A stretch of 63,031 bases of DNA, filler included, from Stramenopiles sp. TOSAG23-6 (GCA_900128565.1; 18 parts of 18 records of this genome joined end to end with filler, not necessarily neighbours in it), one strand, 5' to 3'; shown: positions 3,697 through 60,703, counted from the first letter of the whole stretch. Translations and numbers: made by a program. The notes: generated by a model not told the origin, from the letters alone.

Positions 3697-3947
3697 TGTT
3701 GGTGTATTTCAATTTTTCAGGTTAGGGTTAGGGTTAGGGTTAGAGGTAAGAAGAAGGTGTGCTGCACCTGGTAATCTGAAAAGTGCCTTCTTTGTTTGAA
3801 GTAAAATATGCTGAGGAAAAAAGAGATAATCTTGATGACAAAATGAAGTGAGAAAATGAATAGATGTTAGTTATATTTGTAGTTCATTTGTTTCTTTAAA
3901 AAAAATGAAGTTAAAAATAAGTGTTTCATTGTTTTACATTTAATTCT

Positions 3948-7132: not shown

Positions 7133-10100
7133 ATATTCACCAGTTTCCTCAACTTGCATTACTTTACACATCATTTCAAAATTCATTTCACCTGATCCTG
7201 TAGCATCAAATTCTTGAAATTTTACAAATGCAAGTTCTAAAAAGTCTACATCTACATTATTATCTGACTGGAATTTTCGCATAAGTTGTTTCTTTTCAGC
7301 TTTAACTACTGCCCGTTTTTGTTTATCAGATGTACCTTCGGCTTTTGTTAATAATGCACCAACTTTATCGGCTGCAGGTGGACCAGCGATTGCAGGGGGT
7401 GGTGGAACTCCAGCAGCACCAAAGCTTGGAGGAGGTGGGATCCCACCAGGACCAAAACCAGCACCTGGACCAACTGATGTTGAATTGAAGTCATGACGAC
7501 TAGGATCAGGATGTTTGCATAATTTATAAAATTCTTCATATGAAACTTGTCCATCATGTATTGTGAATTTTTTTTTTTTTTTGGTTTAAAAAAATCGTTA
7601 GGTACAACATTTCGTATGAAAAAATAATTAGATACAATATTGAAATGAAAACGTACACCATCCAAATCAACCATTTTAATCATTTCATTGATTTCTTCAT
7701 CTGTGATCATTTCACCCATACATATGAGACAATGCCGCAACTCTGCCGCACCTATAAACATATTTTTATCTAAATCTAAGAACCGAAATGCATCAAAAAT
7801 TTCCTTATCTGAAAATTCATCTGATGCTGCAAAAGTACCCTCTTGAATATCAGCTTTCTTTTCCTCAAGTTCTTCTTCATTTCTTTCCGCTTGTAACTCT
7901 GCTTCTTCCTCCTCAGCTTCTTTATCGATTCTATCTCGTTCATCAAATGCATCAACAAGGGGTTGTCGTTGAGGAAACGCAGCACCAGCAGGAGCTGTAA
8001 AATCAAATCTAATTAATAATTCACCAGCTGTATCCTCCTGACCCCATCCTCTTTTCTTATTATAAATGGGTATCCATTCTTCTATATAGCCTTTTTTGAA
8101 ATATGGAAGTAAACTGATTTTTTGTTTTCCTATTAAATCATCACTAGAGATCATATCTTCATCAAATACTTCTAATATTAATTCATATTGATCAACAATC
8201 ATAAATTCTACAACTTCATCCCACATTGGTTCAGTACCACCATCAGTATCCGTTTTTGTTCTCTTTACTTCCTTGCCTGTGTTTGCACCCTCTAATGTAA
8301 ATTTAATATAAGGATCTTGTCTACCTAATGAATCTGCATCAAATAGTTTACGTCCTTGTTTAGGAGTAATTTTTAATTTACCTGCAGCAAAAAATTCAAA
8401 TGCAAATTCAATTTCACCTGCATCTTTCTTTTTTTTATCAAATATTTTGATGAATTTCTTATCTCTTTGACCAACGTCCATTCTAGTATACGGAACTACA
8501 GATAATTCAGTTTCACCTATTAAATCATCCGCGCCCACATCTTCATCATAACATGAAAGTTTTAGTGGATGTTGCCATATTGTATTATCAATATAAAACT
8601 CAAACTCTTCCTCCTTAAAGTATGGATTCTGTCCACCATCTTTTATAGTCTTTCCCCGACGTTTAAATGTTTTATTTGAACCTAAAGAAAATTTCAAATA
8701 TGGATCTTGCTTCCCCCAACTATCCATATTCTTAAGATTTCGACCATCAAATGCAGTTAGAACTAATGTACCTTGTTTTACTGGTTCAAACCATATTTCT
8801 AATTCTAATTCTCCAGCAGGTTGCTGTTGTCCTGATTTCTTATGAATCCAAGTTAAGTCATACCAGTCTCTTTCTGCTTCTAATCCTTCAAAAAAAGGTA
8901 ACATTGAAATCGCCGTTTCCCCAAGTAAATCATTACTAAAGCTACCTTTATTCCAAACACGAAGTAAGAGAGGCATGTCATTGTCTTTTAACATATGCTC
9001 TGGATTAAATAAATTGAAAAAGCAAACTTGCTTTTTAAAATCAGGAAACATTGATTGACCTTTCACCACTTTTGTTTTCTTTACAGGTCCTTTTTTCAAA
9101 GAGGAAACTTTGAACTCACAAAATATATTTAATTTTTCTTCTTTACCTACTTTTGTACTTCGACCAGCAGAATGTTTATGAATGTCTCGTCCTTGATGTA
9201 ATCGTACCATAAAACGACCAGGTCGAGGGACCCAACTTTCTTGCATATCTGGTGGTGGTGGCGGAGGAGGTGGACCACCAACACCTGAAGCACCATCTGC
9301 TCCTGGTGGTGCAAATGAAGGAGGTGCCATAGTAGGTGGTGGCGGAATATCACTTGGTGGTGGTGGAACACCAGGCGCAGCTGTTGGCGGCGCATCAGGT
9401 TTTGGTGGAGGCGAACCAGGCTTTGGTGGTGCACCAGGTGCACCTTCTTTTGCTGCTACAGTTGCTGCATCTTCTGATGGCGGAGGTGCTGATGGTGCTG
9501 GTGGACGAGCTGGTGGTCCTGGTCTTGCTGGTGGTCCTGGTCTTGCCTGTGGTGGGAGCGGACGTCCAGCACCCACTTGGGCAGTCTTTGGAGCACTACC
9601 ATCAGGGGGTCTTTTAGATGGTGGCGGTGCTCGTTTGGTTGGACTACTAGGAGCTTTTGGTTTTGGCCTTGGACCAGGTGGACCAGGTCGTTTGGGTTTT
9701 GCTTGTGCAGCTAAAGCTCTTGCATTTGGTTTAGGTGGCGGCCTTGATGGTGCAGGTCGCTTCGATTTTGCTACAATTTTAGCTGCCATTGGCGGTGCTC
9801 TACCCTGACTTTCTAATGGTGCCGCTCCCGCTGGTGCCTGACTTTGTGATGGCGGCGCAGTAACTGGTGCAGATATTCCAGGTGAAGCTCCAGGTGGTAA
9901 AGGTCGACCTATTGCAGCAGATGGTAATTTCATTGGTGCTGCACCCTGAGGCATTGAGGGTGGAGGTCTTCTGCCCGCCGGACTTCGAGGTGGAGGTCTC
10001 TTTGTTGGTATCGTAGTAGTAGTAGTTGTAGTTGTTGGTGCAGCTGAAGGTGCAGGTCGTTGAGGGGGGAGCGGTCTTTTACCTCCACCTGGCATCCCCA

Positions 10101-22201: not shown

Positions 22202-23261
22202 TAATTTTTACGGTGGAGGGTTAGGGTTATGAATATACTTGGTTAGGGTTAGGGTTTGGAGATTTAAATTATTTGAAAAAAAAATTCAATGAACGATGCT
22301 GTTCGTTCTGTTCGTCGGTTGGCACACAAACAATTTCTTGCAAAAACTTTGTCATTAAAAGTTGTAAAGGCACAACAAAGTTATAATTAGAAATAAACAT
22401 TGTTCAATTTGATATTTTTTATTTTTTTTTTTGTTCAATTACAAAATGTAGTTTAATCATGATTCTTCAAATTCATGTTCAATCATGGTAAATGTAAATT
22501 ATGTAAATTTTACCAAAAGAATTTCTATTGTAGCTTGCAGTATAAGATCTGTCTCTTCAGATGTCGTGTTGTCCATTCTTTTTTCATCATCACTATCAAA
22601 AGGTCTCTCTATTGGTGACGTTGAGGGATTTTATGAATGTACAAGTGCTTGAAGTTTTTTTTATGGTTGGTATTTCTGGTGCCGCATTATTTTTTTATTT
22701 TTCCTAATTTTTATATTGTTTTTTTATTTTTCCTAATTTTTGTATTTTTTTTTTTATTTTACCCAATTTTGCTTGCATTATTTTTTTATTTTTCCTAATT
22801 TTTATATTGTTTTTTTATTTTTCCCAATTTTTTTTCTAATTTCAAATCAATGTGATATGGTGGCGAAAATATTGCAATATCCAAATATTGGATTTTGTAT
22901 TTTTCTACTTCTTGAAAAATTCCCTCATGATTTTTTCCCTCAAGTACTTTCAGGGATCTTCTTTATTTTCCAATACTTGAACGGGACGACCCACATTTTT
23001 TTTTTCAACTTGAAATGAAAAATAACTGATTTGAGATTTCGTGTTTCAAAATTAAGAAAGTGTGACGTCACTTTTCGACTTTTCAGAGACGAACGACACG
23101 CGGTCCACTTTTACAGATCTTGATCGTCTTGATCACCCAACTAATGTTAACAGTAACTTTAGTAGTAGGTACATATTTTTTCAACTGAACGTAGTGTACA
23201 ATTAGCTAATAGGGTCAAACTACAGTCTTCCGCGTACCTTTCTGTCACATAGCATAAAATA

Positions 23262-24773: not shown

Positions 24774-26453
24774 ATACAATCACGACATTCGTTCATTGCA
24801 CGAAGAAATGATGAGGATACATTTGCACCCATTGTAAAATCATGATCTCTCACACACTGCTGGAACTCACGCACTATGCATTGTGAAAAAATATTTTTTT
24901 TTGAATTAAAAAAATTGTTAGGTACAAAACTTTCATAGTAAAAAAAATACTTTACATTAAAACATACATCCACATAAGAACAATATCTCGAGAGTATAAA
25001 CCTGAATTATGCATTTTTGAAGCTTTCAATGCTGTTAACTCATCTTTTTCCAAAAGTCCACAGATGACAAGGTCCTCATATATTGTAAAATTTGTTTTTT
25101 TGTAAAATTTGTTAGGTACAAAATTTAGTGCGAAAAAAAATTCGAACTTGAAAAAAAATAAAACATACATTTGTGGATTCTTCATACGTTGGGTCGATAC
25201 CCTTGTAAGTTAAGAAATGTGCAACATTTAAATATCGGTATATCCGAAAGTGGATTTTATTTGTTGCTGCATTTTCATGGCGAAATGCCGCATATATTTT
25301 CGAAAAATATTTCAAAAAAAAATCGTTAGGTACAAAATTTACTATGAAAAAAAAATCGAATTTGAAAAAAAATAAAACATACACATCCGAAGACCATTCC
25401 TAAATCATGTAAACGACTCTGAACTTTCAGCATCAGGTTCAGCGCCTTGTAGAATCTACTACACATGTGACGGTGGAAATATTTCAAAATTTGAAATTGT
25501 TCGATATGGGATTTTTTATGAAAAAAGAAAAACGAAATTGATGATGAAAATGTATAGAATAAAAATTTTTAAAAAAGAATCAACATTTACAAAATTGCGA
25601 ACGAAAAATAAAAATAAATAAATTTGAAATGATGAAAACCTACTCATTGTAAAAGCAAAACACTGAAAATAAAATAGTAAATATAAAAAATCTATCGTAA
25701 AACGTTGCAAATGCTGAAAAGCCTAACTGCAGAGAAACGAGCGATAAGCTGTTTTGTGTCAGGTTTGAGTCTAACTTTGCAGCACTTGCCGTGGCAGCAT
25801 CTACTGTGTTGTGATAAAGTATATCAAATTCGAAGTTTGTTAGGTATGGAATTTTCCTCTCAAAACAAAAAATCAATTAGGTACAAAATTTCGTACGAAA
25901 AAATAAATAAATTTGAAATGCGTAATGAAAACGTACATGATAACTTAGTCACTTCTAAAGGGACACTTGTAAACTCAACATATCTCTGATACCATGAAAT
26001 TAACGCAGAAACTCCAGCCATAGACAATGCTCCAAGAATGCTACCACTAAAAGAATGCCAAAGCCGGGTATATAGTTTCCATCGTGTATCCCAAAGGGCA
26101 ACGCTGTTCCGAAACTCGCAAATTGGCATTGGGGGTCTTTTATATTTTACAAAATCTTCAAATAGTCGAGAATATGTAAAGAATTCAGATATTCGCGCCC
26201 CCTTATTCTTCAGCAAGGACTTTCTGACGCATATCTTTGTCGCTCGATGTAGAGCTCGCCTGCAATGATGAACTTTGGTTAGTATTATTGTGGTAATGAA
26301 TACACATAGAACAAGTGCAGGAATCATTGCAAACCCAACTTGTTCTGATTGTTTCCAATTTTGAAGCTGGTTTGCTGAAGCCCCTCCATCCCATTTTAAA
26401 CCACTTTCACTTGAAGTTGTAGTTGACATAATGCAAAAATTAAAACTTAGCAA
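24774..26453 (-). CDS. Bestrophin-like membrane protein, multi-exon, partial
   Basis: Spliced model gives SRFYKAL..VQSRLHDL, RYLNVAHFLTY, GLLEKDEL; introns 25804-25936 (AG), 25465-25643 (CAT), 25292-25382 (TAT), 25078-25168 (TAT), 24876-24967 (CAT). Confidence 0.65.
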
Positions 26454-26731: not shown

Positions 26732-27623
26732 ATGAAAAAACAAGTATTATTCACTATTCTTTTCATCACACAGTGGAGACAAAACCAAAGTTTATTTATG
26801 AATTGTGAGTGTGAAGATAAAATTAATCCAGGTATATGCTATGCTACAACACGTGAATGTCACCGGGCGATTGCAATGTATCACTGGTATTATAAAGAAT
26901 TAAAGGGTAAAACGGGTGAATGCGGTGGTACATTACAACAAATAGTTGACGATGCAAAGAGCATCTGCACAAATGACTACTCAGTAGAAGACACAGACAT
27001 TGTGCGTGTCAAAGTTTGCGGTCCCACAGGGTTGGGTATCGGGGTAGAATTTGAGGAAATGCGTGTACACCGTGGCCAGTGTAGTGACTTATATACTACA
27101 AATAAATCAAAATGTATGGAGAGTGAAACTTGGACCCCAGGAATCTGCAGCGTCTACAATGATACACGAAATGACTCTCTTGATTGTGAAAAAAGTGGAG
27201 AATGGACCCCTCAAAAATGTTCAAATCCTGAATATACTACAAAGGAAGATTGTTTTTTAAATGTAGGTGCTGCTGGATGGACGCCTAATAAATGCAGTGT
27301 AGAATCACGAAGTGAATTAGGACAAGCTAATTGTATTGCAAAAGGTGTTTGTTTTCATCAATGCATTTCGAATTTTTTTTTTTTTACTACGAAATTTTGT
27401 ACCTAACGAATCTTTTTTTTACGGAAAAAAAAATATTTTTTCACAATACATACTTGGGTGGAAGGGATCTGCTCTGATGGGAATTCAAAAGATAAAGAAT
27501 CTTGTGAAAATAGTAAAGTTTGGATACCTTTCATGGATGTTGGTGTGTGTGATAATGCAACATCGCTTGATATCGCTACAGTATTAATTGTGCTTAGTAT
27601 CATTGTAAATCTTTACGCGGGTG

Positions 27624-27659: not shown

Positions 27660-28246
27660 ACATCTTAATAGTATCAGTGCAAATCTTTACGTCCTCTACA
27701 AAGGTGGCATTTAGCAAATTCAAAATTGAATCTATGCTAAAGTACTACATTTCGTTTACGTAAACAAAATCAAAATTGTCTATACAATAAAGGCCACAGG
27801 CAAACATTAAAAAAATAAAACCCTCATTGTCTTTTTGTCCTTGAATTATTTTATTCGAGAAAAAAATATATAAATATATAATATTACCCGGTTTACTATA
27901 GAAAAATAAATCTATTGAAAAAGAAAACAATAAGAGTAAATCCGCGCGAGGCTCTTGACCATTGCGAAACACGAAATACTACAAAAAACATCTCGTTACT
28001 CCTTCCCTTCAATGAAAAACAGACTGGGCAAAATTAAAGATATCAATCAGAGATTGAATATATAAAATAATGCAGACCCAGTCAGAAAAAAAAANNNNNN
28101 NNNNNNNNNNNNNNNNNNNNNNNNNNNNNNNNNNNNNNTTAATTAATTAANNNNNNNNNNNNNNNNNNNNNNNNNNNNNNNNNNNNNNNNNNNNACAAAA
28201 TTTCGTACGAAAAAAAAATCGAATTTGAAAAAAAATAAAACATACA

Positions 28247-29427
28247 TATCATCATTACATTTAGTAATAACTGAAGGATGCTGCATGGCTACTCGGTTTA
28301 AAGTACGATGTACTGTGAAATAATATTTCAAACATTTGATTTTTGAGTTAGGTACACGAAACCTTTGGATTTTCAAGAAAAAAAAACAATTTTGAAATTG
28401 AAATGCTGAAAAATATTTCAAAAAAAAATCGTTAGGTACGAAATTTCGTATGAAAAAAAANNNNNNNNNNNNNNAAAAAAATTGAAATTTGAAAAACGTA
28501 CAATAGCAGCGAAGCGCAAGGTCGCCCTTGGAGACGCCAAAAACATTTGAAGAACTGAAACAGCTGGAGCTAAATCACGTGGAGAAGCACCAGGTAAGGC
28601 ACAAATGCACCGAGCAGCTTCATAAACAACCAATTCACTCTTGTGCCGGAGACAAGATTCTAGAAAATCCATCAAGTGAGCTTCATTCACTTCTGCCATT
28701 CCTTGGTGCAATAATTGAGTGGCGTATTGCACAAGCTGATACATTGCCAATGGTGATCTTAACATTGAATTAGTTAGCTTCAAAACAAATTTTGAAACAG
28801 AAAGAATGTCACCCCTCCTAGACTCAAACAACAAACATAAAGCGTGATATTGTACCATGTCACTTGGCATGTTGAGTGCTTCTCGAATCTGACTAATCCA
28901 ACCACGAACGATGGAATTGTTATCTTTAGCAAGATGAAGACCAGCTACTAAGGATGCTGATGCTACCATTGGTGTCTTATCTACGATAGCAGACTGAAAG
29001 TAGCGCTCGATCTGTCCAAGAAAAGCAGAATCGATAATCTTTGATAGAACCCTAATAGAGTTAGCTTTCCGTAAGTCATCGTCACTAGTCATATCTTTTA
29101 CCAGACATGATATAACAATAATAACCTCTTCTGCAGAAGTAATATCTGCTATCTCTTTGATGAAAAGATACATCATACGTCGAAGGTCTGGATCGTGACT
29201 TTGGAAGAGCTTCGTGACACCGAAGAAAACATCAGAAGTTTCCGTCTGTGTAAATCTATCTCCATTGTAGAGAAGATATAACAACTCAGTAATTACTTGA
29301 CAACATCGTTTGGAAAAGGCGAGTACACTAAGTCCTCATCCTTCATCTTCAGCTTATCGCGCATACCACTAAACTCTTTCATGACGGAGTTCATTAAGGA
29401 ATCAGTCTGTTGCCCTGGAGATTGCAT
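28247..29427 (-). CDS. COPG: Coatomer gamma subunit, 5' part
   Basis: LLYLL..GDRFT..E..DVFFGVTKLFQS, LRHKSELVVYEAAR, LRFAAI|RTLNRVAM across GT-AT intron 28308-28501; apparent frameshift near 29315. Confidence 0.9.
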
Positions 29428-31988: not shown

Positions 31989-32622
31989 GTAGGTTCAAAT
32001 GTTATAATTTGAAAAGAAACACTGAAAAAAAAAATTTTGATTTTTTTTGAAAAATATTTTTTGAAAATATTTTTTGATTTTTTTTTTCAAAAATTTTTTT
32101 GAAATTTTTTAATTTTCTTTTTGGTTCTATTTTTCAAAAAATTTTCGTCACATTTTTTATACATATTTGTTATGTAATATGTTATATTAATAATCCTATT
32201 ATTATTTTTGTATGGACATTTCATACATGCTAATTTTATTCAAAACCAATGACACAATTTTTNTCCCNAANCCNAATNTAAAATTTTTATTTGAGTCTTT
32301 TGTATTTATTTTAATTTTTCTTAACCCTAACCCTAACGTTAAACCCTATATTTTTTATGNTACATTTGAGTCTGNTAGGAGTTCTTTTAATTATTTTAGG
32401 TTTACTTTTGTTTTTGTATTCAAATATTTTTGATCGTCAAATGCAGAATTCATGATNGNGTCTAGATTTTTTTNAAGTACGCATATATATATATAGAATA
32501 AAAACACACCAAAAAATATTGTCAATTTTTTTTTTAAATTTTTGTTAGGTACGCATCGAGTCAATCAATTAAAAAAAANAAATTCAGAATTTACCCATTT
32601 AATTTTTATTTTACCATGTTTA

Positions 32623-35235: not shown

Positions 35236-38165
35236 TTGGTTATATTGTATAACACAACAAGTGTTGTCGCAGCACCACCAGAAGCAAAAGCAGCACCAGC
35301 ACCAGAAGCAGCAGAAGCAAAAGCAACAGCAGAAGAAGAAGCACGAGCAGCATATTACGAACGCACATTGGAGTTTCTCGAACCGCTACGTGAGGCTAAG
35401 AATGCTCAACGTCGAAGAAACAAAGCAAAAAGAGCAGCACGGAAAGCGGCCAACACGATCCAAATGGCCGCAGCAGACGCAGCAAAAGCAGACGCAGCAC
35501 GAGCAGTACCAGAAGCAGAAGAAGAAGCAAAAGCAGGAGAAACAAAAGCAAACCCAGAACGTTTGCAAGCGTTCATCAATGGTCTCAAAGAAGTCTTCGA
35601 AAATGCTACTTCAGATGATATTCAACCAACTATGTGAGTTTTTTTTCGAATTTTTTTTTCGAATTTTTTTTTCATAGTAAATTTCGTACCTAACAAAAAA
35701 AAAATTTTGAAATATTTTTTAAGCTACATCGATGCTTCTGAAAACGTATTCGAAGAGATGAAAGAGGCTGTTTCTGGTGAATGTAGTTCGGAAGCTATTG
35801 TCCTCACTTTGAAAAATCATTTCGAAGAATTCAATACATTGTTTGTTTTTATCATTCATTTTAATTTCAATGTACAATTTTTTTTTACTACGAAATTCTG
35901 TCCAAAACTTTTTTTTTTTTTTTAATTTCAATGTATAATTTTTTTTTGCTGAAAAAAACCAAAAAAAACAAAAAAAACAAAAAAACTTTTTTTTTTTTTT
36001 TACTATGAAAATTTGTACCTAATTGTGTAAAAAAAAATTGGAATATTTTTCGGAAATATATATTGGCTCAAGGCAATGAAGAGAACAAGGAAGAGGAGAA
36101 GAAAGTCATTCTGGAAAAAGTCAAGGCTATCGCAAAAGGAAACTCTGGAAAATTGTATGTTTCTTCATTCTGAATTTTAAATTTATATTTATAGTTTTTT
36201 TTCATACGAAATTTTCATAGAAAACAAAAAAACATTGAGATTTTTTTTATAGAAGAATTAATTAATCCCAACATTTTCTTCCGTGTTTTTGATGTTTTTT
36301 ACTAAGTAGCGTTTCCGTCTTTTTCAATTGAAAAAACAAAAAAAAACAATCATTTTGTATTTTTTTTCATATCTTTTTTTTTTTTTTTTTTTTTTTTTTC
36401 ATACACTTTACACTAACAAAAATATTTTGATTGCATCAAATTTGAAATATTCTTTCATTATTCAGTTATGAAGCTATGCTAAAAGCCATTTTTTGTGATG
36501 CGCAAACGCTTATTGAAGAGTTGCATCAATCTACGACGCCAGAAGGAAAACCATCTTTGGCGACGATACAGGTACTGTGCGTCATCTATTATACATATAT
36601 ATATATATATATATATATTTGTAGTACGTTTTGTACTTAACAAATTTTTAAAATATTTTTGAAATATTTTTTCACAAAATAGGAAGGGCAGAGTAACGTT
36701 TTATCAAGAATTCATGGCAAGAGTGAAAGAAGCAGAAGCAACAGCAGCAGAAGCAAGAAAAGCAGAAGCAGCAGCACGAGCAGAAGCACCACCGGCGGGA
36801 GCACCACCAGCAGGACCACCAGCAGCACCACCAGCACCACGGCCACTGCCACATCCGGCGAATCTGCCACGCTGGAAAGACCCAGCAGAAGCAGCAGCAG
36901 CAGTACGCATTCAAGCTGTCTATCGTGGACACAAAGGAAGAGAAACAGCAACCGCCGCAGAAGCAGCAAGAGCAGAAGCAGAACGAATTGCTGCAGAAGC
37001 AGCAGCAGCAGCACACGCAGCAGCGGAAGCACCAGCAGCAAGAGCATTCTATGCTGTTCGACGAGGTCATGTTGGAGAAGTTGCACAACTTATCGCTGAT
37101 GGTGTTGATGTCAATCTGACTGATAACGATGGATCTACACTATTGTTTATTGCTTCAATGAATGGTTATGATGAAGTAGTTCAACTACTTCTCGGTGCAA
37201 AGGGAATTGATGTCAACGCGGTGAACTTTGATGAAGAAACCCCATTGTTAATGGCTTCATTTTTTGGTCATGTTGGAGTAGTTCAATTACTTCTCAATGC
37301 TGGTGCAAATGTCAATCAGTCAGATATCGACGGATGTACCCCATTGTTTAATGCTTCAAAGATGGGTTATGAAGGAGTAGTTCAAATACTTCTTGCTGCT
37401 GGTGCTGATGTCAATCAGGTTGATGAAGACGGATATACCCCATTGTATAAAGCTTCAGGGAATGGTCATGATAAAGTAGTTGAAGAACTTCTTGAAGCAA
37501 AGGAAATTGATGTCAATCAGGCTCCTAAAAGTGGATTCTGGAGTGGATATACCCCATTGTATATTGCTTCAGAGAGAGGTCATTATAAAGTAGTTCAACT
37601 ACTTATCGATGCTGGTGCAGAAGGGGAAATGAAAGGAGAAAACGTAGCAGCAGAAGCAGCAAAATCAGCCGCAGAAGCAAAAGCAGCACCAGCACCACCA
37701 GCAGCAGCACCACCAGCAGCAGCACCACCAGCAGCAGCACCACCAGCAGCAGGACCACCAGCAGCAGGACCACCAGCAGCAGCACCACCACCAGCAGCAC
37801 CACCAGCAGGACCACCAGCAGCAGCACCACCAGCAGCAGCACCAGCAGCACCACCAGCAGCACCACCAGCAGCACCACCAGCACCAGCACCAGCAGCACC
37901 ACCAGCAGGAGCACCACCAGCACCACCAGCAGCAGGACCACCAGCAGCACCACCAGCACCAGCACCAGCAGGACCACCAGCAGGAGCTCCACCAAATGCA
38001 CCAGCTCCACCAAATGCACCAGCTCCACCACCACCAGGAGCACCAACACCAACACCAACACCAGCACCAACACCAGCATCTGGTACGGGTTCAAAAGTTT
38101 CACACACTTATGTGCTAACTACTACGGCACTTTTGGGTGTTCTATCATTTGTCGCAATATTATAA
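35236..38165 (+). CDS. Ala/Pro-rich protein with IQ motif, about 6 ankyrin repeats and hydrophobic C-terminus, multi-exon
   Basis: IQAVYRGHKGR; TPLxxASxxGH repeats; introns 35634-35729 (CAT), 35841-36061 (TAT), 36155-36465 (AG), 36577-36682 (AG). Confidence 0.75.
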
Positions 38166-38707: not shown

Positions 38708-39638
38708 GTGTAGTATATTGTAAAGGGATTAACTTGACTGGAACTGATGGTAGCTGAGTTTCGACGGGTATGTATACGTCGTTACCCTCTGATCTGCTAA
38801 TATCAACATAGCAGTACGTAAACATTAAAGTTCCATCAGCAACCACTTTAAAAGAAACAACTTCTTTATATGAAACAGTCTGATTTTTATCAAGAACGAA
38901 CCTCGAGCTCAGTGGGTTGTTTTGACAGATCGGTGTCAACGCCAACGAGCCGTCAGAGAGCTTCAAGAAACTACATTGTGGCTTTGGTGGTTGTGTATTA
39001 CTATCGCTAACACAAATTACACCAGTTGATGTTGTACTTGGTGGAACGGCAATTGTAATCGTTGGATTTTCTTGACAGTTCTGACAATCCTGTTTCCCGC
39101 AACTGCACTTCAACGAAAACTTGGTTATAACATTTATATTTTTTTGTTTTACGTCATCCCTAGAAACTTTTATTGAATGTGCAAGGTTTGGTTGCTTTTT
39201 CGATACATCTGCTAACATTCCATTTTTAAATGTATAATGGTATTGATATATTTTGCGGTGTTGTGGTAATGCGAAGCAAGCTATTACCAAAATTGGTCCT
39301 TTTGTAAACAACTTCGTGTCTCCTTGTTTTTTACAAAATGAGTCAGCGGACGGTTTAATTGTTATTATCGGATATGTACTAAAGCTACAACCCCACACGT
39401 TAGGATCTGAAGCAGAGTCTATTTTGAATAATCCATAATGAATATTCTGAGGGATAAAGGCTAAAACATTTGTGCACGGCAAATAGAAACTTGTGCAATC
39501 CTTGTTTGAACAGAGAAAACCGGGAAGGTTAGGATTGTCGCACGTGCATGGAGTTAACACTCCCAAATTCGAACCACATACTCGTGATGGTTGAAGTTCA
39601 ATTATAATGGCTAGAAACAGGGGGAATAACTTCATCAT
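38708..39638 (-). CDS. Secreted Cys-rich protein, partial
   Basis: Signal peptide, many Cys, long intronless ORF. Confidence 0.6.
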
Positions 39639-39956
39639 AATCCAGTGTATTCTTGTGTTTTTACCCTATGATGTTCTTTTTTTCACAGCGTTACGGCTGA
39701 TGAGATCGATCGATCGAAATCCGAAAGTTCAAAAAATAATACCAAAAAGACGTTTGAAAAAAAAAATTTAAAAAAAAAAAAACACGAAAAATATTCCCTT
39801 TTTATTTTTGGAAATTAGTATTGAATTTCTAGAAAATAATGAAAGATAGAAACAAACCAATACTAGAATATGCTTTTTTTTTTCAACAGAAATAAAGCAA
39901 TTGTACTCTTTTTTTCAGAGTCACTCATCATTTCCAAAATTTTACGTAAAATTGAC

Positions 39957-41959
39957 TTAGAAGCTGGAATTCCTTCTGCGTCTACTTATGTTTTTTCCAA
40001 TTGCATGTATTGTGAAAAAAACAGGAAATAACAAAAAAAAATCGTTAGGTACGAAAGTTCGTACGAAAAAAATAATTTAGATAAAAATTGAAAAAAATAA
40101 AATAAAACGTACATGCACTTCAAATCCAATCGTTTCAACTTCTTCATGATTGAGTATATTTCTACCATCAAAAAGAAAAGCCGGTTTTTCCATACCATCA
40201 TAAATTTTTTGGTAGTCAAATTCTTTAAAACAGTCCCATTCAGTTAAAATTGCAATTGCATGAGCTTTCTTCATCGTGTCATATGGTTTATGATTTTCCA
40301 AAGAAATCATCTTTCGTAAACCGGGTACCGTTTCTTCAGTGATACCACAGGTGTACTTTAACTCTTTGAACATTTCTTCTTCAGTCACTTGTGGGTCGTA
40401 TACAGCAATAGTAGCTCTTTCGCCGAGTAATGCTTTAGCAATGTACGCAGCGGCTTGAAATGCAAAAAAATATTTGAAATTTTTTTTTTTTTTTTTTTGT
40501 TAGGTACGAAGTTTCCTATGAAAAAAAAAAGTCGACGTACAATAGCCATTATGTAAACATACAGTTTCTCGAGTATCGCCTGTATTTTTTTTAAATGCAA
40601 ATCCAAGTAATGCAATTTTCTTTCCCGTAACTGTGTTAAACATACTTATTTTGTAAAAAATATTTTTTTTTTTTTTGAAAAAATATTTTTTTGTTAGGTA
40701 CAAATTTTACTACAAAAAAAAATTTAAAAAAAAAAAAAAATTTGACATACTTTGAATAATTCTTTGAGAAAAACGATTTTTTTGATAATTATTCATTGTA
40801 ATCACAGATAGCCAATAGTCAGCAACTTCAGGTAAATTAAATGATTTACAAAGATATACCAAATTCAAAATATCTTTTTGAAAACAAGATCCTCCAAAGC
40901 CAACACTTGCTTGTAGAAAATTAGATGTATGAAAAAAAANATTTNAAAAAAAAAANTNGTTNGNTANGGTTGAATTCTCTAGGGTTAGGGTTAGATGTTG
41001 AGATTGAAAAAAAAATTTTAATTTTTTTTTTTAAATTAAAAATACGTCCAATACGTGGATCTGTGCCAATGGCATGAGCCACCTCAGCAACATTTGCATT
41101 CGTTTTTTCACACAATGCACTGATGGAGTTAATTGATGAGATCCGCTGTGCAAGGAATGCATTGGCCACTAATTTCGATAATTCTGAAGACCATGGACTA
41201 CAAAAAAAATATTTCAAAACAGTTTGAAATCGTTAGGTACGAAATTTCGTACGAAATGTTTTTTTTTGGAAAAAGGGGAAAATTAATGAATTATGAAAGC
41301 ATACACAATGATGATGTAATTATTTTAGCTTTGGGTACCCAATGCGCATAAATAGCACACAACTTCGCTATCGCTTTTTGTCCGCTGGGTGTTCCCTGAC
41401 CACCAATTAGAACTCGTGAAGGATTAGACAAATCGCGGATGGCAGTCCCTTCGGCTAAAAATTCAGGATTTGATAAAATATCGAAAGTGACACCATTCTT
41501 ACATGTTGATGATAAAATGCGTTGCAATGCGTAAGCTGTTTTTACTGGAACTGTAGATTTTTCAACCACAACTTTTGACGTTGTTGATACTTCTGCAATT
41601 TTGCGGGCCGCTTTCTCCAGATTTGTAAGATTTGAAGCACAACCAGCGCCAATACCGTACGCTTTAGTCGGAGTATTCACACAAACAAAAATGATTTCTG
41701 CATCAGCAATCTCTTTATCAATATTTGTATTAAAAAAAAGGTTTTTTCCACGTACTTTTTGAATAATTTCCTCAAGGCCAGGTTCAAATATTGGAAGTTT
41801 TTCTGAGTTCCAACGATCAACCTGAGCTTGACTAATATCTACAACTGCGACGCGGATATGAGGGCATTTGTTTGCAATCATTGCCATTGTTGGCCCTCCA
41901 ACATACCCAGCTCCAATGCAGCATATACGCGTCGTAAACTGATTTGATGCGGATGACAT
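39957..41959 (-). CDS. UGDH: UDP-glucose 6-dehydrogenase, complete, 6 exons
   Basis: [73 protein letters not shown]. Confidence 0.96.
40005..41304 (-). other. Five non-AG introns in UGDH: 41193-41304 (GT-AT), 40925-41045 (GT-AT), 40646-40750 (GT-AA), 40455-40562 (GT-AA), 40005-40112 (GT-AT)
   Basis: Removal restores ITSSL|WSSELSK, DPRIG|PNFL, IIQ|SMFNT, DTRET|AAAYIAK and FEVH|AIGK without indels against remembered UGDH consensus. Confidence 0.87.
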
Positions 41960-42287
41960 TATAAAACACTAAAATATTTTCAACTTTCTTGTTCAACAAG
42001 GACTTGAAGTTGATTGGTTGTTGATTGATGATTTTTAAACGTAGGTGGTAATATTTTGTTTAAAATGTTTTCGGGTTAGGGTTAGGGTTTGAGAAATAAA
42101 TNNNNNNNNNNNNNNNNNNNNNNNNNNNNNNNNNNNNNNNNNNNNTTAATTAATTAANNNNNNNNNNNNNNNNNNNNNNNNNNNNNNNNNNNNNNNNNNN
42201 NTTTTTTTTTTTTTTTTTTTTTTTTGTTAGGTACGAAATTTCGTATGAAAAAAAAATGTAGATAAAAAGTTCATGATGAAAACGTAC

Positions 42288-45400: not shown

Positions 45401-45811
45401 ACACAACCATACAACAACCTTCATGCAATCATCTCTTCTATGGTCACCCATTGCTTGAAGAAGCTTGCAATAACTTCTGATAGCCTGCAATGGCAACTAC
45501 TTACTAATATATTAATGATACATTATACTTTATTAAAGAAAAACTTAATAAAATCACATACCAATAAAAACCCATCCCAATACCACCCATCCCANNNNNN
45601 NNNNNNNNNNNNNNNNNNNNNNNNNNNNNNNNNNNNNNTTAATTAATTAANNNNNNNNNNNNNNNNNNNNNNNNNNNNNNNNNNNNNNNNNNNNAGGTAC
45701 AAAATTTCGTACGAAAAAAAAAAATCGAAGTTCCTACTGCAAATTTTGAAAAATCGTTAGGTACAAAATTTCGTACGAAAAAAAAAATCGAAGTTCCTAA
45801 TGCAAACATAC

Positions 45812-48040
45812 GTGAGAGTTTCGTGCAGCAATTGTTCTTTTTATCCTCAGCATTTCTCTGAACGTATCCTCATTACCATGACCAATCTCAAACTCCTGCC
45901 AAGATTTCCAAAATTCCAATGCAACACGAGGATCTGCGAATTGGGCACAATGAGTAAGAATCCCTCTAGCTCGATCAATTTCACCAAGTTTTCTCTCCAT
46001 TTCTGCATATCTCTGACACAAAGTTCGAATGCCAACGTCTTCAAGACCACTATCATCGCCTAAAGCTTTTTCGTATATATTCCGTGTTTTGTACACACCA
46101 TAATATTCTTCAACTTTTCGAAGCCACAATAAATATACTTGGAGTCTAGATTTGGAAGGTAGGATTCGCGAGGCTCTATCCAAAATGGACATGGCATGAC
46201 GTGTCATTCCATAAGTTTCTTCTAATTGAAAATAGTCAATATAAAATATAAAAGCATGTTCAACAGGAGCATCCGCAATAACTTCTTCATATAGTTCCCG
46301 GGATCTCTCTAATTTCGAACCATTATAATGCGAATTAAAATCTGAAAGATAAGACGTCCATAACTCTTTACGATGCGGCCAATCAAACAAAGATATTCCT
46401 TTTTCATAGACTCTATAACTATCTTCAAAATATTTATTCTCCTTCAAAAGAAGAGCATAATTCAGAACTGTGCGTACACTTGCTACCTTTAATGCAATCA
46501 TACGATCATAAGCATGTCTCGTAGAGTTCAAATCACCCAAATTCTCCTCTAAATCTAAACGTAATCTCCAGAGTCTTGAATTTTTGTGTAATTGCTTCTT
46601 GTATTTTTGACCATTTTCTAGATCTCGTCGATTGTGACGTCTCTGAGGTTCTGCAGTTGCTTTATGGACCAAACTTAAGGCTTTTGTATACGATTTATGT
46701 TTGATATGGCATTCAATCCAAGCACACCAAATACGAGCGAGGTGATCAGTATATTTGAAACGGACTTCTGTTGCTTTCTCGAAAATTACATCAGCGTTTT
46801 TTAAGTCGTCTTGATCAGAATAGTAGTGAGTAAAGTCAATCCAGAGGTCATGGGGATACCCTACAGCTTTAGCCGGATTAATTTTTGAGACACCTTCTGT
46901 ATAACACTCTACAATGTCGTACGGTGTATCATATAGCTTGACACGACTCTGCCACTCATGAACATTATGTGGGTTCTGACGAAGACGAACTGATGATAAC
47001 AAGATAGGTCTACGATCCATTAAGAGTTCTAAACGAGCTAAGCGAAGGTCAATATCATCTCCGAGCTCATCATTGCCGGAATCATTATCGTTACTTTTCT
47101 CTGCCACAACATCCATCTTGGCATGCAGCATTTGTTCTTCAAATTGCGCGTATGCTTCAAATACTAAAGAAAAATCTCTCACAGTCATCAGAACTGAAAT
47201 AGCTTCCTCGTAAATGTCTCTTGCTTTTGAAAACATACCAATTCGTATATAATAATCAGCGAGACTACACCATAGGGTTCCTACTTCATCAGAGAACCGA
47301 CAAATCCCAGCTCTAATAATCGCGTCGGCATCAAGAGAGACAATATGCGAAGATTTTGTGGACAATAAGTTACACAAATCCATCCACAGCTGGTGTTTAT
47401 TTTTCTTTTTTATTGATACAAATGTATCATCAGATGCAGCAATTGAAAGTTGTTTAGCGGCTTCATCGTATTGGCCAATGTCAAGGAGAAACTCAACATA
47501 ATCTTCCACCTGTTTAGGGTCAAATCGCATGTAGCGACGATACACGCGCAACGCAGTTTGCCATACGCCAATACTTTTGACCCATTTTACGTACAGCGCC
47601 CATACTCGATCGTGTTGTGTTACTGGCAATGCCTGTAGTGCTCGATCAAATGTATGCCGCGTGCGAGTGATTAGTTTTTGGGCTATGAGAAACTCACAAT
47701 AATTTGTCCACATACGAGGATACTTATGCATCGTGACCAAGGCACGTTCATATGCATTATTTGCAGCAGTAAATTTTTTGTGGCCTGGCTTTTTTCCTCG
47801 TGTTTCTTTTATACGATCCGTTAGATAACTGTTCCATAATTTATAACTTCCTGGAAGGTGTTTTACTGCCCGTTCATGTAGTACGTTGCGGCTCTTTGAT
47901 CCAGAGTTTGAAGATCCGCCCTTTTTCACACGCTTTGATCCAATATACGCACACCATTCCTTCACTGAGTACGGGTTCCGCATTAGAATATTTTCATAAT
48001 GCATGTCATCAGCAGTTGGCATCCATGACGAGGAGCTCAT
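45812..48040 (-). CDS. SYF1: Pre-mRNA splicing factor SYF1/XAB2 (first long exon)
   Basis: RNPYSVKEW..Y, LPGSYKLW, TRTRHTFDRAL..LPVTQHDRVW, LRQNPHNVHEW, HGNEDTFREMLRIKR; ends at a GTATGT donor. Confidence 0.93.
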
Positions 48041-48347
48041 ACTGCAACACGTCTAATTCAACAGCACCAGTACTATCTAACCTACCTGCAAGGAGAACGA
48101 GAGAGTCCATCGAAAAATTTCAAAGTGTTTTTCGCTTCGCCGCGAGTGAGGTAAAAAACACGAAATCCAATCCGAAATCTGGTACTCAAATATATGTTGA
48201 AACTGTAAACTACATCACGTTTGACACAACGTAAACTGAAAGATAGCACAATAAACTGAGTACAAATAAACTGAAAGATAGCACGGTTTATAACAGTAAA
48301 AAAGATTGGAAGCTGTTGCCAGTTACACCGAACTACCAGTCACATAC

Positions 48348-49185: not shown

Positions 49186-52100
49186 TCATTTTGATGTCAC
49201 TAAATGTAATTTTATCGTGTTTCAAAAGTATTTCTTTTATGTCGTCTGTTTTACAATTTAGTATATGCAATCCAAGTTTTTGTTTCTCTGGCCCATCCCA
49301 TGCTTTGGTTTGACCTGTCTGTTTATTACCTGAAGCGTTCCAATCAGCGTTGCTTTCTTCTGCATTGCCTTCTTCTCTCTTAAACATATTTGCTGCTGCA
49401 ATATTATTTGGTTCAACGTCGTCATGATTATTTGCTTCTCCTTGTGGTGCTGGTGCCACATTCTGCTGTGGTGTTGTATTTTCCGTCATTTTGTCTCCAA
49501 TAAGCAACGGGGTGGATCCTGCATTAGTATCCCGATCGACATCAGCACCAGCAGTGATAAGTTTTTCAACTACTCCAACATGACCATTCTGTGAAGCCTT
49601 CGACGCGCTGCTGATGCTGCCACCGCCGGGGCCGCTCTTCCCTCCGATTTTTTCGTTGCATTCGTTGAGTTCCTGGAACACCTCTTTGTTGCCACCTTTG
49701 TCCGGATGGAATTTACGGGCCATTAATTTATAGCACTCTCTCCACTCTGTTTGTCTCACGGGCTCGCAGAACTTTTTGAAGCAGTTGATCTTGATGCCAT
49801 CACCGCCGCCGCCACTTCCACCATCACTCGCATTAATGGCTTCCCCGTTTGTCTCAATTGAGGTGCTTTCTCCAAATTCATTCATCGCCTGAGCTGTGTG
49901 ACAATAGAATACCATGAATAGTACAAGTAATCTCGGCAATCTCATCGTTTTGAATATAGTATATTCAGAATAAATAAGGACGCGTTCGTCGATACAGTTG
50001 TAATTTCCATAGAGAGAGATTTAATAACAAATTCACTGGATAGAAACGCGTTAATACGTAACGCAAACGGTCCTTTTAAATTTCTTCGCTTCAAAAAGCA
50101 GGTTTGTCTTGAACAGACATGAAAACACACGTGTTTTCTTCGTCGTGTTTTTGTTTCTGTCCGAGGATGATGACCGATTTGAGTTTTTTGTAATATCGAT
50201 TTCTGTTATACAATTCCCACACATGCTGTATTCCATGGAGTAGCTAGGCCCTCACAAAATGCTACCACTTATTCCTTGCATTTTATCTGCCGCAGGATCA
50301 GTGATAGGGTTTGTGTCTCATTGGACGTATACTCAAATTAGTGGTTTGCGAGAAACTGTCCTGTCACTAGAAAATGCAGTTGTGAGAGAAGAACCAAGTT
50401 TCTGGAGTCAGTTATTCGAGCCTCTTGCAAAACAGTGTGGTGGGTCTCTAAAGACAATTGCATTATCTGCATGTATCGCGTCTGGGTCAGTCATGATGAT
50501 GTGTATTGGAACATGGTATGAGATGCGTTTATTACGCTTCTCTAATGCACAGCGGAAAGATTTGGAAAAAAGACTGGAGTCTCTACGCGAAATTAACCTT
50601 GCTTTGGCGAAGGACTGTGAAATATTGACGAATGAAAAAAAGAAATTAGTAGAAAAAGAAAACAGGTTAGTTCAAACGAGCAAAATTTTCCATGACAAGT
50701 CTTCCAAGATATCCCCACTCGTAGACTATCGCCAACCCCTGACGGTAAAATATATACAGAAAACCGAATGAACTAAGATTAGTGTTGTACGCATTGTGAA
50801 TGAATATAAGTATGGTCTTTAGTGAAATGTTTAAAAGAAATAGTTTTGTATACTATGAACTACTTCTACGTAATAAAAGGATTAGCTTTTTATTTTATGA
50901 ACTACTTCTACGTAATAAAAGGATTAGCTTTTTTTATTTTATGAACTACTCCTACGAAATAAAAGAAAAAGGATTCACACTTAAAGATAACATAATCAAG
51001 GTGTATCACAATACATGCTTTTCCCGTTACCCATCATATGCGTGGCAAATTCCTTATAATCGACCGTGCCTATTCCGTTAACGTCAGCAGCTTTCGTGAA
51101 TTCTACTACTTCCCCCTCTGTCAACGGATTTTCACCCATAGTTTTGAGTAGACTTCCAAAACTTTTTACATTTATTACACCAGGTGAACTCTCAAAAACT
51201 CCTAAAGCATCAATTATATTCTGAAGCGAGGTTGTTGGTTTTAGTTTCTTCATCATTTCTACAAAACTATTTTCATCTAAACTATCTCCTCCCATCATCT
51301 TTGCTATTGTTTCGTCGGAAGCTCCGAATAAAGAACCCCATACACCCTGCATATCTTCTTTTGTAACTTTCCCATCGCCGTCCTTATCGATAAAAAGAAA
51401 AAGTTGCTGAAACGTCTCGACGTCGGACATTTTAATATATGCTTTGTGGTGCGATGTAGTTTTGGTCAATGAAATGTATTTCGTATTTCCAAAGATATGC
51501 TGCTCGCGAGTAGCGCGCAAACGCAAACAACGGTCGACAGTTACTTTTTGTTCTTTTCCTTTTTCCTTTTCCTTTCCTTTCAGAAAATGAAAACCATGCG
51601 ATATTTCTCAAACAAGCATGGATTTTTTTAATATACATACTTAATACTACTACTGTTTTTAATGGCGGCAGTACAAGCTCTACAAAGAGGTGGGCAAAGT
51701 CATGTAGATTTTGGAGAATTTGAGAATACCATTTATGCTCAAGGAACAAAAGATCACGACAACGCTATTGCTGAGATAATTGAAATGCGACATTCACGAG
51801 CCGGAATTATTGCTGAGGAAGCAGATATAGACCATTCCCGCACTATTGATACAATAAATCAAAATAGCATTGAAACCAAAAATAATATAGATCTAAATTT
51901 TGCTGTTCGTAAAGAAAAAGTAAAGGAACAACTAGATGAAACCGAACTAGCTTCATTGGGTATGTTTACGAGTATGACAGAAAGTGACCTTATAGAACTC
52001 AATGAAGAGTGTGAAGAACAACTTCAAAGTGAAATTGCTATGGCAACCCAGATTTTCAAGGCTAAAAATGAAGCTCGAGAAAAGGCTGACAAAGAGTCTA

Positions 52101-55100
52101 GTGATACCAGGGCTGCAATCGCAAGAGATATAAAATATAATATAAAACAGAACTTAGAAGATAAAAAAATGAAACTTATAAAGTTAGAAACTTCACTTTC
52201 GAAGCTTAAGAGTAATGAAAGTAAAATGGCGGATATTTCACAAAGGTTACAAACAAAGAGAGCCAAGCAATCGCTTAGTGCGAAAATCAGAGCTACAAAA
52301 TGGGACATTGAACAATTACAGCAGAAAGATAAAGATGCATTCATGAAAAGTAGAGATATAGAAGTAGAGGCTTTAGTTAAATCACAAAATACTGCAAAAC
52401 TTCAGCTAGATCTTTTCACTGTAGCAAAATCAAAACTTAAGGCACAGGCGGCTGCTCAAAAACAAAAGCGGTTGGATCTGTTTAAACAATTCCAACAGAC
52501 TAAACAAAACTCCAGGAAGCAAGATGAAATGTTGTCATCATCAGTTAGGCAGCAAGATGAAATGTTGTCATCNNNNNNNNNNNNNNNNNNNNNNNNNNNN
52601 NNNNNNNNNNNNNNNNTTAATTAATTAANNNNNNNNNNNNNNNNNNNNNNNNNNNNNNNNNNNNNNNNNNNNTCATTTTGATGTCACTAAATGTAATTTT
52701 ATCGTGTTTCAAAAGTATTTCTTTTATGTCGTCTGTTTTACAATTTAGTATATGCAATCCAAGTTTTTGTTTCTCTGGCCCATCCCATGCTTTGGTTTGA
52801 CCTGTCTGTTTATTACCTGAAGCGTTCCAATCAGCGTTGCTTTCTTCTGCATTGCCTTCTTCTCTCTTAAACATATTTGCTGCTGCAATATTATTTGGTT
52901 CAACGTCGTCATGATTATTTGCTTCTCCTTGTGGTGCTGGTGCCACATTCTGCTGTGGTGTTGTATTTTCCGTCATTTTGTCTCCAATAAGCAACGGGGT
53001 GGATCCTGCATTAGTATCCCGATCGACATCAGCACCAGCAGTGATAAGTTTTTCAACTACTCCAACATGACCATTCTGTGAAGCCTTCGACGCGCTGCTG
53101 ATGCTGCCACCGCCGGGGCCGCTCTTCCCTCCGATTTTTTCGTTGCATTCGTTGAGTTCCTGGAACACCTCTTTGTTGCCACCTTTGTCCGGATGGAATT
53201 TACGGGCCATTAATTTATAGCACTCTCTCCACTCTGTTTGTCTCACGGGCTCGCAGAACTTTTTGAAGCAGTTGATCTTGATGCCATCACCGCCGCCGCC
53301 ACTTCCACCATCACTCGCATTAATGGCTTCCCCGTTTGTCTCAATTGAGGTGCTTTCTCCAAATTCATTCATCGCCTGAGCTGTGTGACAATAGAATACC
53401 ATGAATAGTACAAGTAATCTCGGCAATCTCATCGTTTTGAATATAGTATATTCAGAATAAATAAGGACGCGTTCGTCGATACAGTTGTAATTTCCATAGA
53501 GAGAGATTTAATAACAAATTCACTGGATAGAAACGCGTTAATACGTAACGCAAACGGTCCTTTTAAATTTCTTCGCTTCAAAAAGCAGGTTTGTCTTGAA
53601 CAGACATGAAAACACACGTGTTTTCTTCGTCGTGTTTTTGTTTCTGTCCGAGGATGATGACCGATTTGAGTTTTTTGTAATATCGATTTCTGTTATACAA
53701 TTCCCACACATGCTGTATTCCATGGAGTAGCTAGGCCCTCACAAAATGCTACCACTTATTCCTTGCATTTTATCTGCCGCAGGATCAGTGATAGGGTTTG
53801 TGTCTCATTGGACGTATACTCAAATTAGTGGTTTGCGAGAAACTGTCCTGTCACTAGAAAATGCAGTTGTGAGAGAAGAACCAAGTTTCTGGAGTCAGTT
53901 ATTCGAGCCTCTTGCAAAACAGTGTGGTGGGTCTCTAAAGACAATTGCATTATCTGCATGTATCGCGTCTGGGTCAGTCATGATGATGTGTATTGGAACA
54001 TGGTATGAGATGCGTTTATTACGCTTCTCTAATGCACAGCGGAAAGATTTGGAAAAAAGACTGGAGTCTCTACGCGAAATTAACCTTGCTTTGGCGAAGG
54101 ACTGTGAAATATTGACGAATGAAAAAAAGAAATTAGTAGAAAAAGAAAACAGGTTAGTTCAAACGAGCAAAATTTTCCATGACAAGTCTTCCAAGATATC
54201 CCCACTCGTAGACTATCGCCAACCCCTGACGGTAAAATATATACAGAAAACCGAATGAACTAAGATTAGTGTTGTACGCATTGTGAATGAATATAAGTAT
54301 GGTCTTTAGTGAAATGTTTAAAAGAAATAGTTTTGTATACTATGAACTACTTCTACGTAATAAAAGGATTAGCTTTTTATTTTATGAACTACTTCTACGT
54401 AATAAAAGGATTAGCTTTTTTTATTTTATGAACTACTCCTACGAAATAAAAGAAAAAGGATTCACACTTAAAGATAACATAATCAAGGTGTATCACAATA
54501 CATGCTTTTCCCGTTACCCATCATATGCGTGGCAAATTCCTTATAATCGACCGTGCCTATTCCGTTAACGTCAGCAGCTTTCGTGAATTCTACTACTTCC
54601 CCCTCTGTCAACGGATTTTCACCCATAGTTTTGAGTAGACTTCCAAAACTTTTTACATTTATTACACCAGGTGAACTCTCAAAAACTCCTAAAGCATCAA
54701 TTATATTCTGAAGCGAGGTTGTTGGTTTTAGTTTCTTCATCATTTCTACAAAACTATTTTCATCTAAACTATCTCCTCCCATCATCTTTGCTATTGTTTC
54801 GTCGGAAGCTCCGAATAAAGAACCCCATACACCCTGCATATCTTCTTTTGTAACTTTCCCATCGCCGTCCTTATCGATAAAAAGAAAAAGTTGCTGAAAC
54901 GTCTCGACGTCGGACATTTTAATATATGCTTTGTGGTGCGATGTAGTTTTGGTCAATGAAATGTATTTCGTATTTCCAAAGATATGCTGCTCGCGAGTAG
55001 CGCGCAAACGCAAACAACGGTCGACAGTTACTTTTTGTTCTTTTCCTTTTTCCTTTTCCTTTCCTTTCAGAAAATGAAAACCATGCGATATTTCTCAAAC

Positions 55101-60216: not shown

Positions 60217-60703
60217 TAAAGTAGATTTTTAATGTTTTAGATGAAAAAGATACAAAATAATAAAGTAGATTTTCAGATTATGTACCTCAATTTTCTTTTT
60301 ATTTTCATTGAAAACCTTAACCCCTAACCCTAATTTTGTGTTTCATTGTTTGAATTTTCAATTTTGCGTTTGTTTGCATCCATATATGCAAGCGGTTTGC
60401 GTGTGGGTTTGCTTACTTAGCCATCTCGAAAAATAAAAAATAATTTTGAGGAATTTTGAGAGTCTGATGTCGATGACGTCATATCGATCGATAATGACCG
60501 GACTTTAGTTCGACCAAGCAAAAAATAATAAAGCAAAAAGGTCCCAAAAGGTCTCTGAGTCTTAGACTGATTTGAAAATTAGATTATCAATAATAATAAT
60601 TCTGCTGCACTCTCACCTCTTTTGTCTATTCGTTCTAACTCTAGCAAGACATATTGACTTTTAATTGATAAACTATAGTGAGTGCAGTTATCTGCTATTT
60701 GGA

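Follow-up and report, generated by a model that had tools for sequence, protein, structure and literature searches.

A repeated, introner-like intron family with predicted AG-independent 3′ splice sites in contigs of a marine stramenopile

The stretch of DNA from Stramenopiles sp. TOSAG23-6 that was analysed here (the window, 63,031 bases, GC content ~33%) consists of 18 eukaryotic contigs of ~3.4 kb each, ordered by falling length and joined by N44-TTAATTAATTAA-N44 linkers such as that at 28095–28194. Scattered over the window are ~30 copies of a single ~100-base intron element, to which most introns of the contigs belong, and the genes which host it, among them those for UGDH, gamma-COP, a C2/EF-hand protein, a protein kinase and SYF1, are unrelated to each other. 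When the junctions are set by homology, profile and reading frames, most copies lack the terminal AG of U2-type introns, and once the introns are removed as GT...A(T/A/G), conserved proteins are recovered and reading frames re-established.

The clearest view of the junctions is provided by the gamma-COP and UGDH genes. Every donor/acceptor pair within ±24 nt was joined with no splice-site rule imposed, and the resulting translations were scored against three homologs for gamma-COP (532 distinct products) and four homologs for UGDH. The gamma-COP intron (28308–28501, minus strand; GTACGT...CACAGTACAT) is composed of two family units and contains 14 N; a branch-point-like box, GTACCTAAC, lies at 28347–28355 on the minus strand in the downstream unit, and the box of the upstream unit is at 28431–28439. 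The best product joins ...RFAAI to RTLNRVAM and can be obtained in the registers 28501..28308 (GT..AT) or 28502..28309 (TG..CA). The 3′ end reads ...TTTCACAG-TACAT/CGT on the minus strand (the slash denotes the junction), with 28308 as the final intron base, and an AG at 28313–28314, located 5 nt upstream of this end, appears to be skipped, as the GT..AG product scores 413 compared with 475 for GT..AT.

A similar picture emerges from the five introns of the UGDH gene, all on the minus strand. Intron 1 (41193–41304; GTATGC...GTAGTCCAT) terminates in ...TTTGTAG-TCCAT/GG and likewise passes over an AG 5 nt upstream; its best product, ...IITSSLWSSEL..., equals the homologs in length and scores 678 versus 590 for GT..AG. 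Intron 2 (40925–41045; GTATTT...CATACAT) contains single Ns and has GT..AT as its unique best register, and telomere-like CCCTAA repeats in it replace the TACCTAAC box and supply a CTAAC. Intron 3 (40646–40750; GTATGT...AAAATAA) has nine equivalent registers, including GT..AA, TA..AG and GT..AT, while intron 4 (40455–40562; GTATGT...GCATTTCAA) yields the product ...RETAAAYIAK... with a score of 733 versus 679 for GT..AG and can be read as TG..CA, GT..AA or TA..AG; in both introns an AG is found 1 nt beyond the required end. Finally, intron 5 (40005–40112; GTACGT...CACAATACAT) gives ...FEVHAIGK... followed by a stop codon. The end sequences of the gamma-COP intron and UGDH intron 1, together with the AGs just beyond introns 3 and 4, are thus as described in the initial annotation, and its claim that nearby AGs are skipped is borne out as far as protein homology and reading frames can tell.

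It had also been claimed that use of the AG would shift the frame, which is correct if the donor is kept, but GT donors 2–4 nt away give in-frame GT-AG products. Such alternative donors are used in two public gene models, P0316 (28143–29335 of the window) and P0005 (40080–41959), at the price of 1–3 extra residues that have no counterpart in the homologs, and of lower scores. P0316 inserts VLH at the gamma-COP junction (...AAIVLHRTLN), and P0005 reads ...IITSSFPWSSEL and ...RETVSAAY at UGDH junctions; at its other junctions conserved residues are dropped, so that residues are lost or gained at every UGDH junction. In addition, P0005 contains a false intron at 41552–41497 which removes part of UGDH exon 1, and both models read through into introns at their C-termini. 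Non-AG ends would explain the damage to public models that force GT-AG. P0005 itself is a 438-residue UGDH record retrieved with the translation of UGDH exon 1, its exons are identical to the window, and its source label reads 'GSMAST32...assembled CDS'. The next relatives are P0008 (75% identity) and P0009 (74%), with stramenopiles among the remaining best matches. Because of the P0005 label, the host is treated here as a MAST-3-type marine stramenopile.

The introns are copies of one element. The box GTACCTAAC occurs 30 times in the window compared with 0.18 expected from shuffles, and nearly all matches lie in a common layout of GTAYGTTTT, a T-rich stretch, C(G/A)TACGAAATTTYGTACCTAAC, a variable A/T spacer, often GAAATATTTTT, and CAMAATAYAT directly before the junction. 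When 18 complete copies are aligned together with 10-nt flanks, the similarity starts at T/GT and stops directly after ...A-T, and the flanks are unrelated. The copies are ~90–130 nt long and may be doubled, as at 11160..10964, 28501..28308 and 25936..25804. At least seven contig ends (7074, 21170, 28195, 35088, 42226, 45756 and 59669) fall inside family copies, and therefore the repeat appears to break the assembly. With many similar copies as introns in unrelated genes, the element resembles introners, and the window holds one recently multiplied, introner-like family with well-marked boundaries. The initial annotation had not recognised this family or its extended conserved 3′ block. Outside the window, a metagenome scan with a 19-nt core returned four loci, of which L003 alone is a family copy, with the same ...CACAATACAT end; the other three were rejected as chance matches within unrelated sequence. 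In a seawater RNA library, run X1, 117 contigs fall on 40033–40072, mostly with 90–95% likeness to the 40-nt family core; the library may contain DNA, and the matches show merely that the core motif is common in the sample.

At the 5′ splice site (n = 22) G1 and T2 are present in all introns, A3 in 20, G5 in 18 and T6 in 20, as in U2-type introns. The predicted branch point is a CTRAY-type box, ACCTAAC, which is invariant in 17 of 18 aligned copies and shortened to ACCTAA in the eighteenth. Among 24 3′ ends, position −2 is always A, position −3 has 17 C and 7 T, and position −1 has T in 20, A in two and G in two; strong conservation extends to positions −10 to −4. Eighteen of the 22 tabulated introns end in A-T. 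The AT ends can be aligned, column by column, with the AG ends of the introns with donors at 11670 and 25936 and with the AA ends of UGDH introns 3 and 4, and therefore the last base varies at one homologous position. In 18 of 22 cases the intron is preceded by an exon T, not the usual G, and in 14 of 24 a G follows it; this flank bias may represent an insertion-site preference or be part of the signal. The T/G microhomology allows most junctions to slide by 1–3 nt, and GT...AT is the sole register that fits nearly all introns. Termini of the TG...CA kind were rejected, as they cannot fit UGDH intron 2, the introns with donors at 13386 and 17289 or copies without a T before the donor, and so were AT...AC termini, which need an AT before the donor that is present in only about half of the copies. 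A rule by which the first Y-A-N after the tract is taken was likewise rejected, as an earlier TAT or CAA is skipped in the introns with donors at 25382 and 25168 and in the consensus.

For a frame test, the 3′ end of each intron was placed solely by the best match to the family terminal 15-mer, and the frames came solely from the longest open stretches to either side. An end placed in this way keeps the frame in 16 of 19 introns, and in 12 of 12 unambiguous cases, compared with only 1–2 of 19 for offsets of ±1 or ±2. With the donor fixed, no in-frame AG is found from −25 to +12 in 15 of the 20 non-AG introns. Finally, a family intron within an EF-hand loop (7556–7656, minus strand; GTACGT...CACAATACAT), which has no T-tract near its end, splits a match to the Pfam EF-hand_7 profile into positions 2–53 up to the donor at 7656 and positions 54–66 from the first residue after ...ACAT, with no residue lost or gained.

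The best explanation of these features, and to all appearances a likely one, is that the elements are major-spliceosome introns of an introner-type family with a YAN, AG-independent 3′ splice site. Each copy would bring along its signals, with GUAYGUUUU as a strong 5′ site, GUACCUAAC as a branch box that does not vary, a U-tract in most cases, and the conserved block CAMAAUAYAU at the 3′ end. The 3′ site would be Y-A-N, most often CAU: position −2 is always A, −3 is a pyrimidine (C or U), and the final base, in most cases U, can also be A or G, so that AGs a few bases away would be ignored. The host spliceosome would no longer require a G at the final intron position, and the correct Y-A-N would be chosen via the inherited 3′ block of the U-tract and ~10 nt, with context and short-range spacing acting jointly. 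The family itself might have spread as a mobile element or through reverse splicing. The broader proposition, that an entire marine stramenopile lineage (MAST-3 by label) possesses a major spliceosome which does not read AG, that Y-A at −3/−2 in context suffices and that most of its introns end in AU, is held with less assurance and is only somewhat favoured.

A number of observations weigh against an AG-independent site. Three of the 19 introns fail the strict frame test, each with two open frames. The junction register is ambiguous by 1–8 nt in most introns, and the GT...AT register fails for UGDH intron 4, which admits only the three registers listed above. An in-frame AG is available within 9 nt in 5 of the 20 non-AG introns at a cost of 1–3 residues, and the conservation of the 3′ block may merely reflect the youth of the copies. 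Splicing itself is deduced, since RNA junctions were looked for and not found: on 38708–40939 no joint came from three seawater RNA runs (5–7% of words), in which no record reaches across a junction with 31 letters to either side, hence they are uninformative. Among shorter proteins no junction-crossing one from the same species was found, the best match being 70% for the whole of P0005 and 79% for its residues 283–352. Finally, we know of no way in which a last-base U would fit the contact with the first-base G that is described for AG and AC ends.

The initial annotation had viewed the 3′ site as defined by position, with a ruler starting at the T-tract or the branch point. The last T-run (at least 4 T) does lie 7–13 nt from the end in 17 of the 22 introns, mostly 9–11 nt, and UGDH introns 1, 3 and 4, where about half of the terminal 10-mer is changed, keep their position 9 nt after the T-run and skip an AG or a nearer Y-A-N (C-A-T, C-A-A). 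The distances given for four UGDH introns are also right, at 39–47 nt after CTAAC and 9–10 nt after the T-run. However, a pure ruler, by which the spliceosome, after branching or binding of the polypyrimidine tract, would measure off a constant length from the T-tract or branch point and cut there irrespective of the bases, is unlikely. The CTAAC-to-end distance spreads over 32–59 nt among the 22 introns, which speaks against measurement from the branch box, and five of the 22 have no run of at least 4 T in the last 30 nt; the EF-hand intron has an A-run and still ends in ...CACAATACAT. All ends have A at −2 and a pyrimidine at −3, so the bases matter. Furthermore, the introns with donors at 25382 and 25168 leave an equally good TAT two bases earlier unused, and the upstream gamma-COP unit offers CTAAC, GAAATATTTTT and a further 11 nt, yet cannot be the end. 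The spacing from the T-tract is narrow, but since all introns are copies of one element in which the 3′ block was inherited with few indels, a T-tract ruler is inseparable from common descent. What stands of the position-defined site is that AG is not the end marker and that the diverged UGDH introns 1, 3 and 4 still end at the homologous position. It is concluded that sequence context and short-range spacing both appear to matter; sequence alone cannot separate them.

Ordinary GT-AG splicing, in which the junctions of the public models would be true and the proteins would carry small indels at each intron, is very unlikely because such indels are needed at every tested junction. In-frame GT...AG solutions exist for gamma-COP, for UGDH introns 1 and 4 and for 5 of 20 other non-AG introns, and two family members do end in AG. 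Every tested alternative nevertheless has a lower score (413 against 475, 590 against 678 and 679 against 733) and changes the number of residues within conserved parts, P0005 loses conserved residues at its other junctions as well, and there is no nearby in-frame AG in the 15 of 20 introns mentioned above. Moreover, the EF-hand profile is continuous only at ...ACAT, and the frame test favours the motif-defined end.

A slightly smaller chance still is given to minor (U12-type) introns of a transformed minor spliceosome, which is known to tolerate A-N ends, GT-AT among them, and to find the 3′ site by its distance from the branch point. The long invariant branch box is reminiscent of U12-type conservation, and non-canonical U12-type ends including GT-AT are described for Physarum in a preprint (10.1101/2020.10.12.336362). 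The reading is improbable because the 5′ site and the box distance misfit: the former is GTAYGT, with G5 in 18 and T6 in 20 of 22 introns, and not [G/A]TATCCTT, the consensus quoted in that preprint, and the box lies 32–59 nt from the end and not ~10–20 nt. There is also no TTCCTT[G/A]AC-like box in the last 18 nt, and Rfam gave no matches, thus no snRNA, in the 63-kb window, which says little at such a size.

The least probable, and barely credible, are ends defined by RNA structure, of the kind proposed for Amoebophrya introners and euglenid non-conventional introns, where the paired termini present both cut sites, or else removal at the DNA level: the two consensus ends are able to pair, GUAU against AUAC at −6..−3 (84.7% of cells pairing), and the ends are closed in two of six single folds, but column shuffles pair about as well (82.9 ± 1.9%, with 132 of 500 reaching the observed value), one double-change cell only is present and there is no covariation, RNAalifold finds no conserved pairs in 18 copies, the six single folds are weak and mutually inconsistent (z −0.2 to −2.5), and the GT and branch box are invariant, unlike in Amoebophrya, for which no dominant terminal dinucleotide is reported (PMC7789003).

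Other family introns extend over much of the window. The protein kinase gene contains two tandem units (11160..11065 and 11064..10964, minus strand), both ending in ...ACAT, and the frame is kept only if both are removed, which yields ...DIWSVG+CTVIEMATGK, presumably a match to kinase subdomain IX. At 11065/11064 the ...ACAT of the first unit runs directly into the GTAGGT of the second. Removal of the first would therefore recreate a donor, and recursive splicing is possible. An intron with an AG end (11546–11670, minus strand; ...TACTACAG) gives the product ...KLADFG+ASK, which we take to be another kinase motif of this gene. Further minus-strand introns are located at 10838–10931 (GTATGT...CCAAAATACAT), 12776–12885 (GTATNT...CCAAAATACAT), 13256–13386 (GTATGT...AAAATAT, with an ambiguous downstream frame), 17176–17289 (GTATTT...CACAATTTAT), 24876–24967 (GTATGT...CACAATGCAT), 25078–25168 (GTATGT...ACAATATAT, with an in-frame AG 3 nt downstream) and 25292–25382 (GTATGT...GAAAATATAT), followed by a double-unit intron with an AG end at 25804–25936 (...CACAACACAG). 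On the plus strand, introns are found at 21410–21501 (GTATGT...CCAAAATACAT), 27347–27451 (GTTTGT...CACAATACAT), 35634–35729 (GTGAGT...AGCTACAT, with an ambiguous upstream frame and an in-frame AG 6 nt upstream) and 35933–36063 (GTATAA...ATATATAT), the exact end of the last being ambiguous between 36061 and 36063. Two head-to-tail units are also present at a contig start, at 21164–21298. For three weaker cases, near 3149, 13553 and 22108, it had initially been suggested that TG or TT ends might be needed; by eye on translations, a ...TTACAG end is available at 3149, an in-frame GT...AG solution at 22108 and an in-frame GT...AT solution at 13553.

Among the remaining features, a full-length gene for a SYF1/CRNKL1-type splicing factor is located at 45797–48052 (minus strand) and matches three HAT-repeat Pfam families with E-values down to 2e-149; the family intron at 45811 comes after it. 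Four contigs (17644–21063, 49186–52572, 52673–56059 and 56160–59546) carry the same 3,387-nt sequence with 100% identity, the first of them being 33 nt longer by one extra terminal-repeat copy. This seems to be one contig entered four times, or alternatively a multi-copy element; its open reading frames show an EF-hand match and a weak DnaJ match only. Telomere-like (CCCTAA)n tracts occur within genes at 3706–3738, 13590–13650, 13770–13802, 22205–22253, 32320–32337, 40970–40995, 42070–42086 and 60318–60335, and the one at 13770–13802 is translated in frame as PNPSPNPN inside a long open reading frame.

The terminal AG is among the most constant signals of eukaryotic gene expression and is called nearly universal in a preprint (10.1101/2022.01.29.478184). 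If the proposed 3′ site is true, this would be the first time that a mainly non-AG 3′ end is seen alongside canonical GU and branch signals, and no report of such a family was found in the literature searched, supplements aside. In the main texts on MAST genomics (PMC5778133, PMC8163842) and Incisomonas (PMC12614181), again with supplements aside, the words 'intron' and 'splice' are absent or unrelated to splice sites. The same literature holds nothing that joins 'introner' and 'MAST-3', and papers with 'MAST-3' and 'introns' are, by their titles and the beginnings of their abstracts, not on splice sites. Yeast-like 5′ and branch signals together with an A-U/A/G end would allow the site finding of the second splicing step to be tested, as well as the dispensability of the first-to-last-base contact of the intron and the co-adaptation of an element with the spliceosome. 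The published gene sets of this group of abundant ocean grazers would then be systematically mis-spliced. Gene callers that force GT-AG damage the proteins here, and functional or ecological inferences based on such sets would need a re-annotation that allows GT-AN introns.

The family shares features with several known systems. First, the introners of Micromonas, Aureococcus and dinoflagellates are likewise many near-identical short introns in unrelated genes, with their own splice signals (PMC11282704, PMC7789003). The Micromonas and Aureococcus introners, in contrast, have canonical ends, clear terminal inverted repeats and target-site duplications, whereas the present family ends in A-T/A/G. 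It shows no consistent target-site duplication, T before and G after the intron being found by eye in ~10 of 21 copies; a duplication of 1–2 nt was rejected, as it is not constant among the copies, and the sole trace of an inverted repeat is the 4-nt GTAT...ATAC without covariation. Next, the introns of Fritillaria borealis are likewise recent, derived from repeats and handled by the U2 spliceosome, with A-N ends of the AG-AC and AG-AT types, but they start with AG and have terminal inverted repeats and target-site duplications, whereas the present family deviates in its last base alone and otherwise has a strongly canonical 5′ site and branch box (PMC11282704).

Amoebophrya is a further marine protist in which repeated non-canonical introns are in the majority (>60%) and standard gene callers fail. 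Its introns have no dominant end and carry inverted repeats of 8–20 nt and direct repeats of 3–5 nt, for which a hairpin model has been put forward, whereas here the GT and the A at −2 are invariant and no hairpin is conserved (PMC7789003). In Physarum polycephalum, U12-type introns with AT-AG, AT-AA, GT-AT (17%) and AT-AT ends have a changed branch motif 10–12 nt from the end. As in the present family, GT-AT and other A-N ends occur; the introns were identified through a short motif with constant spacing to their end, and all of them had been suppressed in the standard annotation. Physarum, however, retains [G/A]TATC[C/T]TT and such ends make up 0.8% of its introns, whereas the family described here has a U2-like 5′ site and A-T ends in 18 of 22 introns (10.1101/2020.10.12.336362). 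Finally, rare non-AG 3′ ends are also known from human U2 introns, but as alternative TG sites in 36 genes (PMC2374985), whereas in the present family the non-AG end is the main form throughout.

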